NCBI GenBank assembly: GCA_029974275.1
Contig: JARKSN010000314.1
Location: forward strand, 1 to 31,404
Source: Candidatus Hydrogenedentota bacterium
GTDB taxonomy: Bacteria; Hydrogenedentota; Hydrogenedentia; Hydrogenedentales; SLHB01
Direction: 5' to 3'
DNA: 31,404 bases
Shown piece by piece: positions 18,001 through 24,000 of this stretch. The position numbers were made by a program. The first letter of the stretch is position 1. Every line of letters starts with the position of its first letter.

Positions 18001-21000
18001 CGACGCAGTATCGCGCCGGATGCTTCAAGCACAGTTGGAACGGTGGGGACATGAGGTGATCGTCACCTCGGACGGAGCCCAGGCGTTGAGCGCCTTATCC
18101 TGTCCCGATTCACCTCGTTTGGCCATTTTGGACTGGATCATGCCGGGTTTGGATGGCTTGGGCGTGACCAAGCGCGTTCGGGAGATGCCGGATCGTCCTC
18201 TTACGTACATTCTATTGTTGACGTCAAAGGACCAGAAGGAGGACATTGTCAGCGCGCTGGATTCCGGCGCGGACGATTACCTCGTCAAGCCATACGACGC
18301 CGAGGAGCTTAGGAGCCGCATCGGCGCCGGGTTGCGCATTCTTGGCCTCCAAGAACAGCTCGAACGCTTGAACCAACAATTGGCCGAGCAAGCGCGGACG
18401 GATTACCTCACCCAACTTCCCAATAGGCGCGCCGTGTTGGAACATCTCGCGTCTGAACTGGGGCGGTGCGCCCGTGTCGGAACCCCTTTGCTGGTCATGA
18501 TGGTCGACATTGATTATTTCAAGCGAATCAACGACACCCATGGGCATGCAGCGGGGGACAGCGTTCTGACCGAAGTGGCGCGCCGGTTGACGACGCACGT
18601 GCGGCTGTACGACGCCGTCGGAAGAATGGGAGGAGAGGAATTTTTGATCGTCGTGCCCGATATCGCCCTGGAACAGGCAGCGGCCACGGCCGATCGTATC
18701 CGGCAAACTCTTTCCGACACGCCTATCCCTCTTGACGGCACGGAGTTGCACATTACGGCAAGCATTGGGGTCGCATGGGCGCATCCGGATGATTCCGGGG
18801 CGTTCATCGCCGATCTGCTTATCCGAACGGCAGATGCGCAGCTCTATCAAGCCAAGACAAGCGGACGGAACCGGGTCTGCGTCACTCAGGTTTGACGCAG
18901 TCAAAAAGCGAGTTGTCCTTGGGCCCAAACCAGCCAAGGGCGTGCGCGCTGTTGCGCTCGCCGTAGATATTCGCGGTCGGCGTCCAGGTAAACTTCTCGG
19001 AAGTCACGTGCCCGTCGCACCACAACACGTTCACGCGGCCATTGTGCCGAAAATGCAGACTCGGCGAAGCATATCCCCAATCCGGATTTCCATGGGGATG
19101 GTCCGGCGTCACGAAATAGGGCGGCTCGGCGAAACTATATTCAATGATCAACCCATCTTGAGCCATCGCCGTGTCGGTGAACATAATCGTCTCTGTTGGC
19201 TTGCGGAGCCGGACGTCGCGCGTGGTCATGATCGAAGCCAACGGTCTGGGACGGAGATAGTCCGTTCCCCCTACGTACGCGGCATTGTAGCCGTAGCCGC
19301 CCGTCCCCGCTTCAAACGCCGTCATTCCGTTCACCTCGCGTTGGAACTCGGTGAATTCCGGACATTCCTTCACGCGGCGGTCCGGCAGGTATTCGGCCAG
19401 CGGCCCCTTGCCGGGGTCGAAGGGACTGTCCGGCGTCTCGCGCGCCCCATGCCAGCGCACGAGGCCGCCTCCAGGCGAATCGATATCCGGAGCGGCTGGG
19501 CAGAAAAAACCTTTGTTTTCGTCGGCATACATCCGGTTCGCCAAAAAAAGTTGCCGCAGGTTGTTCACGCATTGCATCGACCGGGCCTTGGCGCGAGCCC
19601 TGTTCAATGCAGGCAAGAGCAGCGATGCCAAAATGCCGATGATGGCGATCACGACGAGCAATTCAATCAACGTGAAGCCGTTTCGCGTCCTCATGCCCGT
19701 TTCCTCGAATTCCTGCGTGTGCGTGCAAGCGCCCGGCATCCCAGCCATGCCATCGCGGGCGCGATCAGCGCCGGAACTGCGGCAAGGGGAAGGGAATCGT
19801 AATAGCCCGCCGCGAGCGTCGTCGAATGGATGTATCGCGTCTGCGCCGCATCCTCAAAAACATGGATCTGAAAAAAATCGCGCAGGTTGGGCGCGGAAAT
19901 CGTCAGAAACGCTTGTCCTCCCGAGACCATGATCTGGTGTCCCGGCTGGGAAAGGTCCGCGTCGCCCGACGTGATGGCCGCTTCCGTCACGCTGACCGTC
20001 AACAACGTTCCGTCGGGAATGGGATTTCCCATGGCGTCATGCAGCGGCGTGCTCTGAACCTCCACCTCGACCGGAGCCTCGCCCTGAGGTGGTCCTGCGA
20101 TGGTCCAGTAAATGGCCGGAGCCGGAGGGCCCGGCACGAATAGATACAGCAGTTCCCCGTAGGCATCGCCTTGAACGCTTGCCGCGCGCACTATCGCCGC
20201 GCCCGCTTCACGCGCGGGTTGAACGATGAACGAAATCACTCCGTCAAGCACAGCGACCTGTATGCCTGGCGTGACGGCGTCGCGATCGGCGCTTACGATG
20301 GAACCATGCGAAGTGGAGACCGTGATGAGCGTGCCATCGGCCGCGGCATGGTCCTGAGCATCCACGATGGTCCCGCTGGTCACGCGCACCGTATTCGCCG
20401 GATTCGCAATGCACTGGTTAAACGGTTCCGCCGTCAGGGCGATAGGGCCGTGCGCCCCCTCGCTCGTATGCTCGTCGCCTGCGCCCGCGGGCGCGGCAAG
20501 GAGAAACGTTCCGGGATACCGGGTCCGGAACGTCACCCGGTTCACGGCCGCGTTGCACTCGATAGAGGAAAGGCCATCCTGGACATACGCGTGATTATGC
20601 AATCGGTACGGTTGAAGGGCGCTTTCCTCCAGCCCTGCAATTTCAGCGGCTTGGTATTGCAGCGTGATCTCTGCGGGTTGAATGCCTTCCGCCACGAAAT
20701 CCGGCGTCGACGATTGGAACGTGCGCACGACGGCAGACGGCAGCAACGTCGCGTCCGGCAACGTCCCCTCTGGCGCGGGGGGCGCCAGGATATCCACGGT
20801 TGCATGAAACGCACGGGCTGGATTCGAACGCGCGGCGCCTGCAAAAAAACGGATTTGCGCGCCTCGATCGTCCCGCGCCGTTCCGAGCAACGCACCGTTG
20901 CCGCCTCCGCCTTCCGAAGCGGGGATTTCAAGCGGCAAAACGGTGTTTTCTCGCCGGAACGGGTCGGTTCCGGCCACGCGCGTCTCATACTCGTCCAGTA

Positions 21001-24000
21001 TCCCGTCGCCATCGCTGTCGATTTCCGGGGCGACATCCGCTACGGCGTCGATCTCCGGCGAGACAACGCCAAGGCCCGGCATGCTGCGGTCCACGAAGGA
21101 CGTCAAGCGGATAAAGTGAAAACGCGTCAACGACGCAGGGTTTCCGTCAACGTCGACGGCCCAAGCGATGTCAAAAGCATCGCCCCCGCCGCTGCGAGGC
21201 GAGAGCCCCACTTTCCAGGGATCGTCAGGGCGCACGTAATTGTCGAGATACGGCATCTGGGTCGGGGTCATTTCCGCGTACCCCCAGGCGTACTCGAGGG
21301 CATCGTTTGAAGGGTCTGCGTCGAGCGCGTTTGGATTCGTGATATTGCCGCCCAACAACGTGATCGGGTGGGGAGAAAGGTTGTCCAGCCCTGCTGGTTC
21401 CACGACTGCCGGGAATGGTGAATACGGAAACGCACGGCTGCCCGGTATGAGATACCAGGGATCGTCCGCCAAACCGTTTCCGTTCACGTCTTCGCTGATT
21501 TCGATGAGGGCAGGTTCCTGGAATTTCCGTTGCGGACTGCCTCCGTTCCAAAAACAATTCGAAAAAACAATGCAATCCAATCCCATCGGGTTGGCCGGAT
21601 CGTCCGTAACCGGCGTGGCGAAACGCAGCGTCAGCGACCCGCCGACTCCACCCAACGAAACGACCCCGCTGTTGTTGGGCAACGTCGGTCCCAGGCCCGT
21701 CGGAGGCCCCAATGTCTTGGAGGGATCTACATAGGGCGCGCTTGCCCCCGGCCCCGGACTGTACTGCATGACCGCGTCGGCCCATGGGTCTTCCGCACGC
21801 GCTGCTGCGGTCAAAAGGAAAAAAAACAGACATAGAAACGCCCAAGACGTTTGAAAAAAGGATTGTAATGAAGCCCTTTGGAACATGGAGCATTCTCCTG
21901 GACGCCTTGTCCCTTATCGCCGCAAACGCCTGATCGAAATTCCTGCAATGCCGCTGGCCAAGATCAACAGGCCCAACGCGCCGACTGCCGGAATGGGTTC
22001 GTATTCCTTTTGCGAACCATATGCGCTTACGGTGGGCGCAAACCCCTCCCAGACCGTGCTCACGATATACACCGTATTCGTGACGTGGTTGTAAAAAGGG
22101 ACATAACTGTTATAGCCGACCGGATCGGGGTCAAGCAGTCCCGCAATCTCGCCCGTCGTGCTGTCGATAAACTGCACCGAATTTTCCCATGTCCCGGCGA
22201 TGAGCGTGCCGTTCGACGATACCGCGCTTACGCCGCCCTTATTGTAGGTTCCAAGAACGGCGCCATCCATCCACGTGAGCGGAACATCGGCGGCAAACGC
22301 GTCCAAGAGCGCGCTGACGTGAAAAATCCGCACCTCGCCGGTGTCGCCGGCAGTGGCGTACAGCAGATCGCGACGCGGACTGAGCGCGAACGCCGCGCCA
22401 TAATGTCCCGGTTTATCAAGGACCTTGCGCAACACGGGAACGCCGCTCGAGAAATCGGCCAATTGAATTTCCGAAGATCCCCAAACAGGCGTCGCCTCGA
22501 CGAAAACGCGCGTTTCGTCCAAGAATACGGCCCAATAATTCGGCAGCCCCGTGATGCAGTCTGCCGCCGGGGAATAATCCTGCGGCGCAATCAGATCAAG
22601 CCGGAAAATCTTCCCATTGTATCCGCCGCCCAACAACGCCATCCGGCCGCTCGGCGAGACCGCGCAAAAGGTCGCGTCGCCTGCATATCCCGAGGCGATG
22701 TGTTGCCACCCATCCTCTCCCCGGCCCGTTTGAACCTTCACCTGGTCGCCGTCGTAGAGCACGAAGCGACCATCAGGCAGATTGCCCAGCATGACGCCAT
22801 ACCCAAACGCGGACGTGGGGAACTGGGAAAAAGCGTCGAAACCTGGCGGAGGCGTGGCCGGAAGCATATTGGCGATCGCCGTGGGCATGGCGGCTGCGAT
22901 CGAAACGATACATGCGATGAAATACAACCTTCTCATGCGAGTTCTCTCCCTAATGCGCAAAAAAAATATGCGCGCTGTACATGGCGTTACATGATCCAAG
23001 GACATCGATGAGGGAAAAAAGCAGGAAGGTCTGAAACGAAGGGCCTGTCCTGCTGCAACCTTTCCCGCGAAGTTGCTGCACGGAATATCCTAGCTGGCGG
23101 GCAGGTCTTCTGGCTCCCGGTTCCTCCTACACTCCGCTCCTTCCCGCCCAATCGGGCAGTGGCTTGTGCGGATTTCGTCCCCGGTTACAGCAGCGCGACT
23201 GCGACGGACTCTCACCGTGCTTCCCTTGGCCTACGCCAGCGCATCATCCGATTTGTCGGCTTTTCACCTCCTTTCTTCTTGCGAAAGTATATCCCCTCTC
23301 CCATATCCTGTCAACTTGCCGTTTGTTCAGGCCATTTGGGCCCTGCGCGAAAGGGAGTCGCGTTGACTGTGCGTCGATGTGTTGCTATTCTCGCGGAGTG
23401 GATGGCGAACCCATGAGAGACAAAGCCATGAGCAACGATGTCGAATACATGCGTCGAGCGCTGGCCTTGGCCGAAAAGGGGCGCGGGCGCACCAGTCCAA
23501 ACCCGATGGTCGGCGCGCTTCTTGTGCGCGACGGACGCATCATCGGCGAGGGGTGGCACGAGCGCGCGGGCGATCCGCACGCCGAGGTGAACGCCGTCAA
23601 TGCGGCAGGCGGCGATGTCGCCGGGGCGACGTTGTACGTGACGCTCGAGCCCTGTTCCCATGTCGGTCGGACGCCGCCTTGCGTGGACTTCTTGCTGGAT
23701 CGCCAATTGGCGCGTGTCGTCGTGGCCATGCACGATCCCAATCCCAAGGTTTGCGGCGAGGGCATTTTCAGGCTTCGCGCGGCGGGCGTCGACGTAGAGG
23801 TCGGCGTGCTCGAAGACGAGGCGCGTTGTCTCAACGAGTATTTCATCAAGTACATTACGACGAAAATGCCTTTTGTCATCGCAAAGTGCGGCATGTCTCT
23901 TGACGGCAAAATCGCCACGCGCACCGGCGACTCGCGCTGGGTCACCGGCGAGGAATCGCGGCGTATGGTTCACCGCCTGCGCAACGAAGTCGACGCGATC

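Follow-up and report, generated by a model that had tools for sequence, protein, structure and literature searches.

A cobalamin riboswitch in a Candidatus Hydrogenedentota genome (assembly GCA_029974275.1) heads an operon that probably constitutes a corrinoid (vitamin B12) acquisition module induced by B12 shortage. The window analysed was contig JARKSN010000314.1, 31,404 nt in length, and all positions refer to it. The operon encodes a secreted beta-propeller (g00736), a BtuH-like protein (g00735) and a pilin-like protein (g00734), whose role in B12 uptake we infer from genomic context. The coupling of a BtuH relative to a pilin-like protein points to an undescribed B12 uptake route in bacteria without the usual outer-membrane transporter; no publication that links a BtuH-like gene to a pilin-like one by coupling or fusion was found in the literature searched.

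The riboswitch aptamer (RF00174; 23083–23255, minus strand) was matched over its full length (1–189) with 91.1 bits (gathering score 31.5) and was the single match in the whole 4.38-Mb assembly, for which 150 of the 253 candidates from a first look were scored. It lies 5' of three co-directional minus-strand ORFs of 340, 731 and 288 aa, with the ATG of g00736 (position 22936) 147 nt 3' of the aptamer; the single riboswitch and the three-gene operon of the initial annotation were thereby reproduced. A promoter-like site (23286–23314, minus strand) with −35 and −10 hexamers, a 17-nt spacer and 11/12 consensus positions is located about 30 nt 5' of the riboswitch; it was the best of three such sites in the region, for which shuffling gave an expectation of 1.7. 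The expression platform (23015–23054, minus strand) consists of a G+C-rich hairpin followed by U6 and resembles an intrinsic terminator. The hairpin and U6 were present in both the minimum-free-energy and the centroid fold, and were missed by a simple terminator scan, the loop being longer than 8 nt. In this fold, the U/C run 3' of the hairpin could pair with a GGGAGAG Shine-Dalgarno-like stretch 5' of the start codon. Stability of the whole 181-nt leader was not above that of shuffled sequences (z −0.52).

The second gene, g00735 (731 aa; 19691–21886, minus strand), encodes a signal peptide and a BtuH-type domain, followed by a TSP3-like repeat (residues ~290–310), a second conserved domain (to ~471), a less conserved Ig-like part and a membrane helix with a basic tail. 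Residues 28–335 (20882–21805, minus strand) were modelled; the model, of moderate quality (pLDDT 71.3; 81 residues below 50), contains a BtuH-type (B12-binding H-domain) fold and aligns to BtuH2 over positions 3–260. A profile built from 34 homologues of the domain matched 8BLW_B residues 395–658 (E 1.1e-19) and 7BIZ_A residues 267–491 (E 1.8e-14). With the domain model, the top three Foldseek matches were 8BLW/7BIZ chains (E 4.5e-12 to 5e-10; next match 1.5e-2), and VIA-align superposed it on these structures with Z 17.9 and 17.5 (next, Z 10.1); 191 and 197 residues were aligned, with an rmsd of 3.3 Å and 29% identity. According to PMC10404256 and PMC8941943, 7BIZ is the structure of BtuH2 with bound B12, and the H-domain of BtuG1 makes up its C-terminal part. 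Two Bacteroides thetaiotaomicron domains, the B12-binding domain of BtuH2 (BT_1956; 7BIZ) and the H-domain of BtuG1 (BT_1490; 8BLW chain B), are by profile and predicted fold homologues of the N-terminal domain of g00735, which had been described as unknown; no Pfam model recognises this domain in any of the 34 members. BtuH2 Asn399, which contacts the B12 phosphate, is invariant in 34/34 homologues, the adjoining Phe401 is kept in 30/34, and a D-x-N-G-N-G-x-x-D-D loop is conserved in 26–27 of the 34. The residues that form hydrogen bonds with the corrin ring in BtuH2 are not retained in the HMM alignment (Trp511 is replaced by Asn, Tyr510 falls at an insert, Trp577 is replaced by Gly/Ala and His476 lies within a BtuH2-specific insertion), and the corrinoid pocket of g00735 may therefore differ from that of BtuH2.

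The relationship to a crystallised B12 binder, with its phosphate-contacting Asn retained, also bears on whether the riboswitch represses a non-corrinoid function needed without B12 (cf. metE, class I RNR), such as adhesion to B12-producing neighbours. Cobalamin riboswitches do govern B12-independent isozymes, one genome of the phylum (L045) has a riboswitch 5' of class I RNR genes, and adhesins commonly feature pilin-like proteins, Ig-like repeats and propellers. We nevertheless regard such a function as very improbable: besides the specific relationship of the BtuH-type domain, pilin-like and BtuF-like genes stand under one leader in another phylum, and all three proteins are unlike any enzyme for which a B12-dependent counterpart exists.

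The third gene, g00734, has the prepilin leader and cleavage motif, and matches N_methyl, DUF1559 and H-X9-DG models (Pfam/NCBIfam), the first two in line with the initial annotation. Its longest ORF (288 aa) spans 18882–19748; its start is likely the ATG at 19694 (18882–19694, minus strand) rather than position 19748, and this start codon overlaps the stop codon of g00735 in an ATGA that couples the two genes translationally. Across the phylum, BtuH-like and pilin genes adjoin or fuse behind cobalamin riboswitches: 28 of 122 pilin matches sit in an open frame of at least 600 aa common to the BtuH-like part and the pilin, and in most genomes with such frames the BtuH-like match gives the identical frame length. 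Of the eight fused proteins in the sampled set, the three inspected begin with the ectodomain and a membrane helix; a basic loop 15–22 residues long then leads to the prepilin cleavage motif and the pilin. Judged from their sequences, these in-frame fusions would place the C-terminal tail of the BtuH-like protein in the cytoplasmic membrane, which leaves the cell-surface location proposed at first unsupported. No solved relative of the globular part of g00734 was found. DUF1559 is matched 13 times in the genome at E ≤0.001, 11 times above the family cut-off, and the H-X9-DG motif is also present in paralogues without a B12 link. In a quick tree, g00734 fell into a single-copy orthologue group apart from the genome's 11 other paralogues, and among the DUF1559 paralogues this group alone was linked to a cobalamin riboswitch.

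Distribution was surveyed in 135 Hydrogenedentota genomes, this one among them, with 213 of 223 riboswitches located. Linkage was scored when a riboswitch lay upstream within 8 kb on the same strand (pilin), 3 kb (BtuH-like) or 900 nt (propeller). The pilin orthologue occurs in 117/135 genomes, once in each, at 56–70% identity, and is riboswitch-linked in 86 of the 117 (immediately upstream in 25, beyond one intervening gene in 42 and further away in 19). The BtuH-like domain is present in 94 genomes, with linkage in 80. At least one of the three genes lies downstream of 155/213 riboswitches; linkage was absent for the pilin in 31/117 genomes, for the BtuH-like domain in 14/94 and for the propeller in 12/81, many of these cases being at contig ends. 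The initial view that the pseudopilin and g00735 are linked to the propeller mainly within SLHB01 was superseded, both being riboswitch-linked phylum-wide. Twenty genomes have the pilin orthologue without propeller or BtuH-like gene, and in all seven pilin-alone loci examined the riboswitch is directly 5' of the pilin gene. The pilin-like protein is the conserved core of the system: it is the component most widely tied to riboswitches, often with one of its own in front. In other phyla, a cobalamin-class riboswitch was found 5' of related pilin-like genes in 2 of 19 loci tested; one of these loci carries an AdoCbl-II riboswitch, a pilin-like gene, a 141-aa ORF and a BtuF-like binding protein. 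The description of the system as phylum-specific holds only for the propeller.

Type II secretion pseudopilins drive folded periplasmic cargo through secretins. The pilin could, instead of serving import, be a dedicated minor pseudopilin that fits a type II secretion machine for carrying the BtuH-like protein and the propeller out to the cell surface, with B12 entering by an unrelated route. The genome encodes a single prepilin peptidase and 8 secretins, 16 matches to T2SS-E-type ATPases exceed the family cut-off, and the gene for the would-be cargo is joined to the pilin gene by coupling or fusion. We consider a role in export unlikely: the pilin persists in the 20 genomes that lack both cargo genes, with a riboswitch directly before it in at least seven; the pilin-like gene between riboswitch and BtuF-like gene in the other phylum has no such cargo on its 2.3-kb contig; and the BtuH-like part of the fusions retains its own membrane helix, which is unsuited to a released cargo.

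The first gene, g00736 (340 aa; 21914–22936, minus strand), encodes a secreted beta-propeller with a C-terminal P-x-x-G/hydrophobic/RRLRR tail and had zero Pfam or NCBIfam matches. Exhaustive phmmer returned 91, 72 and 23 proteins at E 1e-3, 1e-10 and 1e-30, the first two counts agreeing with those obtained before. The AF2 model was confident (pLDDT 93.1, pTM 0.89), and Foldseek again matched it to WD40 propellers at TM ~0.5. Its 24 strands form six sets of four, and the best superpositions were all with six-bladed propellers (lactonase/NHL/YWTD; Z 21–24, rmsd 2.6–3.4 Å over 237–270 residues); the seven blades first annotated were not confirmed. Of the proteins first read as functional analogues of BtuG/BtuH, g00735 is a true homologue of the BtuH2/BtuG1 domain, and the propeller shows no recognisable BtuG likeness. 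There is some case, though a tentative one, for the propeller as the main surface corrinoid receptor and functional BtuG analogue, with the other two proteins as lineage-specific helpers. The propeller is secreted, has a membrane or sorting tail and gave a weak YncE profile match (E 1.5e-4), the family name under which BtuG1 was deposited. Its family, found in 81/135 genomes, has a riboswitch upstream in 69 of the 81 by coordinate cross-match, and Rfam scans of the best 20 of 29 loci from other genomes placed RF00174 upstream on the gene's strand in 20/20 (67–100 bits), so that the riboswitch-propeller pairing first described holds. However, BtuG2 has seven blades and holds B12 in its central cavity (PMC10404256), and no BtuG chain was among the best 50 matches of either fold search. 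The propeller is also the least conserved of the three components (30–43% identity), which removes it from the centre of the system; it is absent in 54 genomes, 40 of which still have a riboswitch-linked pilin, and within one genus the propeller homologue of six genomes (G126, G128, G129, G131, G132, G133) has no riboswitch in front.

Demand for B12 in this genome was indicated by 18 B12-binding domains (PF02310), fewer than the more than 20 B12-dependent proteins first claimed. CbiC, CobS, CobU and CobT were not found, TonB-dependent barrel and plug domains (PF00593, PF07715) had zero matches, as noted before, and homologues of BtuF, BtuD and BtuC lie on contig C60 without riboswitch control. 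The original idea of riboswitch-controlled corrinoid capture in a B12 auxotroph without TonB-dependent receptors is strengthened by the BtuH homology. TonB-dependent barrels are present in 43/135 genomes of the phylum, so the association of the system with a lack of them is not strict. In the acquisition module that we favour, low B12 would allow read-through of the leader, and all three proteins would be exported by Sec. The BtuH-like domain would bind corrinoids on a repeat-domain stalk anchored by the C-terminal membrane helix. The pilin-like protein would be produced 1:1 with the BtuH-like protein; in fused forms, prepilin peptidase probably cleaves it from the BtuH-like part at the cytoplasmic face. 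It would then join a type II secretion or type IV pilus-like machine, of which the cell has many, and connect capture with envelope passage, B12 possibly crossing the outer membrane via the pseudopilus. The BtuFCD-like ABC transporter encoded elsewhere would carry the corrinoid across the inner membrane, and the six-bladed propeller may be an accessory partner that either binds as well or serves as a docking platform.

As in E. coli-type uptake (BtuB/TonB, BtuFCD), the riboswitch would repress an envelope step, and a BtuF/BtuC/BtuD-like set is present; unlike there, an outer-membrane receptor is missing and the riboswitch governs the three proteins of the operon instead. The ComG competence pseudopilus and type IV pili are pilin-based machines that take DNA inward through the envelope. 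They offer a precedent for pilin-driven import of a large substrate, although that substrate is DNA. g00734 resembles the DUF1559 (PF07596)/H-X9-DG (TIGR04294) prepilin-like proteins of Planctomycetota, Verrucomicrobiota, Lentisphaerota and relatives, for which the accessible DUF1559 literature gave no ligand or B12 link; it differs from the genome's other DUF1559 proteins as a separate, riboswitch-tied group. Like BtuG, a surface lipoprotein capping BtuB (PMC6143338 and PMC10404256), g00736 is a secreted propeller directly behind a cobalamin riboswitch; unlike BtuG, it has six modelled blades, no match to the BtuG-type family PF16819 (PMC13398666), no lipobox and no BtuB partner. BtuH homologues were reported from gut Bacteroidetes and three Firmicutes (PMC8941943). 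Like BtuH2 and BtuG1 (PMC8941943 and PMC10404256), g00735 is secreted, carries Ig-like/PKD-type repeats and has a cobalamin riboswitch upstream, and its family keeps the Asn and Phe beside the B12 nucleotide loop; unlike them, it has no BtuB or TonB-dependent receptor in its locus or genome. Its H-type domain is N-terminal rather than C-terminal as in BtuH2, a C-terminal membrane helix plus basic tail takes the place of a lipoprotein anchor, and the ring-contacting Tyr, Trp and His of BtuH2 do not align. The propeller and the BtuH-type domain, fused as one protein in BtuG1, are here encoded in one operon, and, unlike BtuH2, the g00735 gene is coupled, and those of its relatives coupled or fused, to a pilin-like gene.

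The operon is encoded on the minus strand behind a full-length cobalamin riboswitch (RF00174, 23083–23255, minus strand; 91.1 bits against a gathering cut-off of 31.5, model positions 1–189), for which no second match was found in the 4.38-Mb, 342-contig assembly, in agreement with the initial annotation. On the same strand, about 30 nt 5' of the riboswitch, a sigma-70-like site agreed with the consensus at 11 of 12 positions and was the best of the region. The stretch that separates the aptamer from the ATG at 22936 was predicted by folding to hold an expression platform (23015–23054, minus strand) composed of a G+C-rich hairpin and six U, and in the predicted RNA fold the U/C run 3' of the hairpin can pair with a Shine-Dalgarno-like stretch. 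The riboswitch is followed by the minus-strand ORFs of the propeller g00736 (21914–22936, 340 aa), of g00735 (19691–21886, 731 aa) and of the pilin-like g00734 (18882–19694, or to 19748 with the alternative start); the stop codon of g00735 overlaps the ATG of g00734 in the sequence ATGA. The operon is bordered by a convergent GGDEF response-regulator gene at its end and by divergent ribD/ribE on the promoter side.

The N-terminal domain of g00735, previously described as unknown, was assigned to the BtuH type by profile comparison and fold match. A word-index search with the first 330 residues returned 370 relatives; the 120 that were listed had 55–72% identity, and among these the conservation of the N-terminal part was far above that of the propeller. 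A profile of 34 homologues matched 8BLW chain B at residues 395–658 (E 1.1e-19) and 7BIZ chain A at residues 267–491 (E 1.8e-14). 7BIZ is BtuH2, in which B12 is described as bound in the C-terminal globular domain (PMC8941943), and 8BLW chain B is BtuG1, the C-terminal part of which is termed the "H-domain" (PMC10404256). An AlphaFold2 (AF2) model of residues 28–335, with a pLDDT of only 71.3, was compared with known structures: Foldseek gave 7BIZ/8BLW chains as the top three matches (E 4.5e-12 to 5e-10; next match 1.5e-2), and VIA-align ranked the same two chains first (Z 17.9 and 17.5, rmsd 3.3 Å, 29% identity; next match Z 10.1). Homology of the g00735 N-domain to the C-terminal domain of BtuH2 and the H-domain of BtuG1 was thus shown at the level of sequence profiles and a predicted model. 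None of the 34 members was matched in this domain by a Pfam model, and the best protein atlas score of 0.81 was taken as a lead only. DUF4465 was considered as the identity of the domain and rejected, as it is an unrelated family, BtuJ (PMC13398666); a genome-wide search for PF14717 (DUF4465, BtuJ-type binder) gave nothing down to E 1.

B12 contacts reported for BtuH2 are Tyr510, Trp511, Trp577, His476, Asn399, Gln333, Phe401 and Leu578 (PMC8941943). In the 34 g00735 homologues the equivalent of Asn399, which touches the B12 phosphate in BtuH2, was invariant (34/34), the adjacent Phe401 equivalent was present in 30/34 and the Leu578 equivalent in 21/34, and a D-x-N-G-N-G-x-x-D-D loop was found in 26–27/34. 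The ring-contacting residues Tyr510, Trp511, Trp577 and His476 had no counterpart in the HMM alignment, which compares sequences, and Gln333 falls outside the aligned range of the profile.

That the propeller g00736 belongs to no Pfam or NCBIfam family was borne out (none at Pfam E 0.01 or better), as were its 91 relatives in an exhaustive search of 1.84 billion representatives. Its description as seven-bladed had to be revised. The AF2 model (pLDDT 93.1, pTM 0.89) contains 24 strands in six sets of four, and VIA-align wide placed six-bladed propellers of the lactonase, NHL, strictosidine-synthase and YWTD types at the top (Z from 23.7 down to about 21, rmsd 2.6–3.4 Å over 237–270 residues). 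The WD40 matches of Foldseek had a TM of about 0.5 and an rmsd of 6–13 Å; on these grounds the modelled propeller was read as six-bladed. No BtuG chain was among the 50 matches shown by Foldseek or by VIA-align wide, and the propeller profile gave weak propeller matches only when searched against PDB sequences (YncE, E 1.5e-4; TRIM2 NHL, 3e-3). In an alignment of 45 propeller sequences, a signal peptide and a motif of the G-D-P type were seen, together with a tail of the form P-x-x-G, hydrophobic stretch, basic end. Sorting models matched the g00736 tail below threshold only (IPTL-CTERM, 11.8 bits), and the tails of the 45 homologues likewise gave sub-threshold matches only (midcut-by-XrtH 6, IPTL-CTERM 3, MYXO-CTERM 2, PEP-CTERM 1). 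The genome encodes one exosortase (PF09721, 208 bits, contig C280).

The third protein, g00734, carries a prepilin leader with a G-F-T-L-I-E-type cleavage/methylation motif (PF07963, 34.9 bits, cut-off 21.2; TIGR02532, 35.3 bits, cut-off 16.3), a DUF1559 N-region (PF07596, 31.1 bits, cut-off 23.3) and the H-X9-DG C-terminal motif (TIGR04294, 28.7 bits, cut-off 19). In Planctomycetota-like bacteria a single genome can hold dozens of members of this pilin-like family. Counted at E 1e-40 or better across 135 genomes of the phylum, a g00734 orthologue was present in 117, including 81/86 high-quality genomes, as a rule with one copy each and at 53–71% identity. The other DUF1559 paralogues of the genome resemble g00734 in the N-terminal region only, and in a quick tree, in which all 43 rows were kept, they formed a clade apart from the riboswitch-linked pilins (SH-aLRT 82 for the riboswitch-linked clade and 91 for the clade of 11 paralogues). 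Matches of the pilin profile to PDB sequences were restricted to the N-terminal helix of pilins, and in the protein atlas the pilin lay closest (score 0.98) to clusters of N_methyl/DUF1559 proteins from Verrucomicrobiota and Planctomycetota. A second DUF1559/N_methyl paralogue in the window (27170–28318, minus strand) has no riboswitch ahead of it and adjoins xylose-isomerase-like TIM-barrel and DUF2961 genes. One orthologue of the phylum (G093:C9:1778511-1779320) contains a single in-frame TAA, which may reflect a pseudogene or a sequencing error.

Coupling of the BtuH-like domain to the pilin was also seen as gene fusion. In the phylum search 28/122 pilin rows lay in an open frame of at least 600 aa, and in most genomes with such long pilin frames the BtuH-like row gave the identical frame length. 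The sampled set held eight fused proteins, and in the three that were printed an ectodomain and a membrane helix come first, then a basic loop 15 to 22 residues long, the prepilin cleavage motif and the pilin. This order places the BtuH-like tail in the cytoplasmic membrane and its end on the cytoplasmic side, where prepilin peptidase would cut the fused precursor. In the fused forms the tail is internal.

Cobalamin riboswitches were detected in 128/135 genomes of the phylum, and 213 of 223 matches were located after a second search of 66 genomes; 155/213 precede at least one of the propeller, BtuH-like and pilin genes. A same-strand riboswitch lay upstream of the propeller in 69 of the 81 genomes that have it (within 900 nt), upstream of the BtuH-like domain in 80 of 94 (within 3 kb; next to the gene in 54, separated from it by a propeller gene in 26) and upstream of the pilin orthologue in 86 of 117 (within 8 kb; next to the gene in 25, one gene away in 42 and more distant in 19). 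All three genes were present in 72 of the 135 genomes, BtuH-like and pilin in 20, the pilin alone in 20, none in 13 and other combinations in 10. Genes without a linked riboswitch were mostly located at contig ends, with the exception of six genomes of one genus, whose propeller homologue has no riboswitch ahead of it, and of two further genomes (G034 and G044). Twenty riboswitch loci without a downstream propeller match were examined: the first gene was a pilin orthologue in nine, including the two deepest families (34–40% identity), a BtuH-like gene was followed by the pilin in five, and the remaining loci had BtuFCD, CobU/CobT, class I RNR or unknown genes or stopped at the end of a contig.

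Several riboswitch loci of the phylum differ in layout. Tandem cobalamin riboswitches on the same strand, 110–290 nt apart, were located at G092:C23:10347-10828, G104:C11:52302-52814, G105:C373:2296-2915 and G106:C3:41373-41991; they stand before the propeller in G092 and before the pilin gene in G105 and G106. In the two deepest families (L036 in G001 and L037 in G002) the gene after the riboswitch encodes a distant pilin-like protein (34–40% identity to g00734), and the next one a protein of 442–452 aa, with a TSP3 repeat in one of the two, to which the BtuH-like profile gave no match. In G106:C3 (locus L033, 1706–3784) the next gene after the riboswitch-controlled pilin gene encodes a 692-aa DUF3500 protein (303 bits), and this genome has neither a propeller nor a BtuH-like protein. 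At L035 (G025:C109, 450–3376, family f3) a second cobalamin riboswitch lies ahead of the genes for two proteins (476 and 466 aa) that have no Pfam family and may be further corrinoid-related envelope proteins. For the riboswitch-linked proteins of 442 aa (L036), 706 aa (L032) and 476 aa (L035), neither a PDB sequence match (E 0.1 or better) nor a Pfam family was found.

Outside the phylum, a pattern scan for pilin-like loci with one genome per species gave at least 632 stretches, from which 79 loci were kept, and Rfam was applied to the 20 with the fullest match to the query (1 from Hydrogenedentota, 19 from other phyla). In two of these 19 a cobalamin-class riboswitch stands immediately 5' of the pilin-like gene and on its strand, namely in a Kuenenia-labelled MAG (RF00174, 87.3 bits) and in another MAG (AdoCbl-II, 44.7 bits), where the gene order is pilin-like gene, 141-aa ORF and BtuF-like binding protein. 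A Chthoniobacteraceae MAG (L055) encodes a pilin-like protein 47% identical to g00734 and within the riboswitch-linked clade; ahead of its gene lie a 267-aa ORF and the gene of a PEP-CTERM protein, and no riboswitch was found within 1.5 kb upstream. Literature searches returned no report linking DUF1559 with cobalamin, four papers mentioning DUF1559, none of which contains the word cobalamin, no description of BtuH with a pilin in article texts and, for Hydrogenedentes with cobalamin or riboswitch, nothing relevant among the 12 papers listed.

The genome encodes 18 B12-binding domains, and CbiC, CobS, CobU and CobT were not found. Homologues of BtuF, BtuD and BtuC are located on contig C60 and share 36, 38 and 43% identity, respectively, with a set in G034 that is under riboswitch control. 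Neither the TonB-dependent barrel nor the plug (PF00593, PF07715) had a match in the genome; the barrel is present in 43/135 genomes of the phylum. In G006 a TonB-dependent receptor gene lies some 2 kb past the 3' end of the fused gene, separated from it by a PAS histidine kinase and in a group with YfiR-like and kinase genes; it was not counted in the B12 operon. The 4.4-Mb genome further contains one prepilin peptidase, 8 secretin matches and 18 matches to the T2SS-E-type ATPase, 16 of them over the family cut-off. Elsewhere in the window, positions 1433–5434 look like a small element integrated at a tRNA, with a tRNA gene (1433–1515, 49.6 bits), a phage-type integrase (1601–2737), an AAA_25 protein (3446–4756) and an HTH_17/MerR-like protein (4964–5434). 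A sigma-54 activator scoring above the NifA equivalog cut-off (16154–17740, minus strand; 552.4 versus 528.85 bits) adjoins succinate dehydrogenase/fumarate reductase genes (13443–16157), not nif genes.

The operon is best explained as a corrinoid-acquisition module induced by B12 starvation. At its core are a BtuH-type binder and a dedicated pilin-like partner, and the six-bladed propeller is an accessory; the homology, the coupling and the regulation are shown, and corrinoid would be the ligand of the binder. For the outer envelope of these bacteria, the majority of them without TonB-dependent receptors, a pseudopilus route for B12 can be proposed tentatively, and is on balance doubtful: the BtuH-type binder and the dedicated DUF1559 pilin would be made together, often as one precursor split by prepilin peptidase, and would be placed at the tip or the base of a machine resembling a type II secretion system or type IV pilus, and this machine would move captured corrinoid through a secretin to BtuFCD. 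Such a route, if true, would be a TonB-independent, pilin-based nutrient import and would give the very large DUF1559/H-X9-DG family its first function.

Among shared nutrients B12 is a keystone, and most bacteria needing it are unable to make it. Its known passage through the Gram-negative outer membrane is BtuB with TonB, and in Bacteroides the surface binders BtuG and BtuH (and BtuJ) assist its uptake. Here a BtuH-type binder occurs in a distant, uncultivated phylum, in a genome without BtuB, and is tied by gene overlap, fusion and shared riboswitches to one member of the DUF1559/H-X9-DG family. If this link holds, that family would have its first testable ligand, the BtuH family would reach well beyond gut Bacteroidetes, and a concrete example of how a large cofactor might be taken up without TonB would be at hand as a candidate. 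Compared with BtuG, of which BtuG2 is described as seven-bladed (PMC10404256), the propeller of the window is not matched by the BtuG-type family model and its predicted blades are six versus seven. Among btuH homologues of the panel in PMC8941943, more than 80% are encoded in a B12 transport locus with btuB; the genome here has no PF00593 or PF07715 match. Riboswitch control, a feature of BtuH loci, is also true of the g00735 operon.
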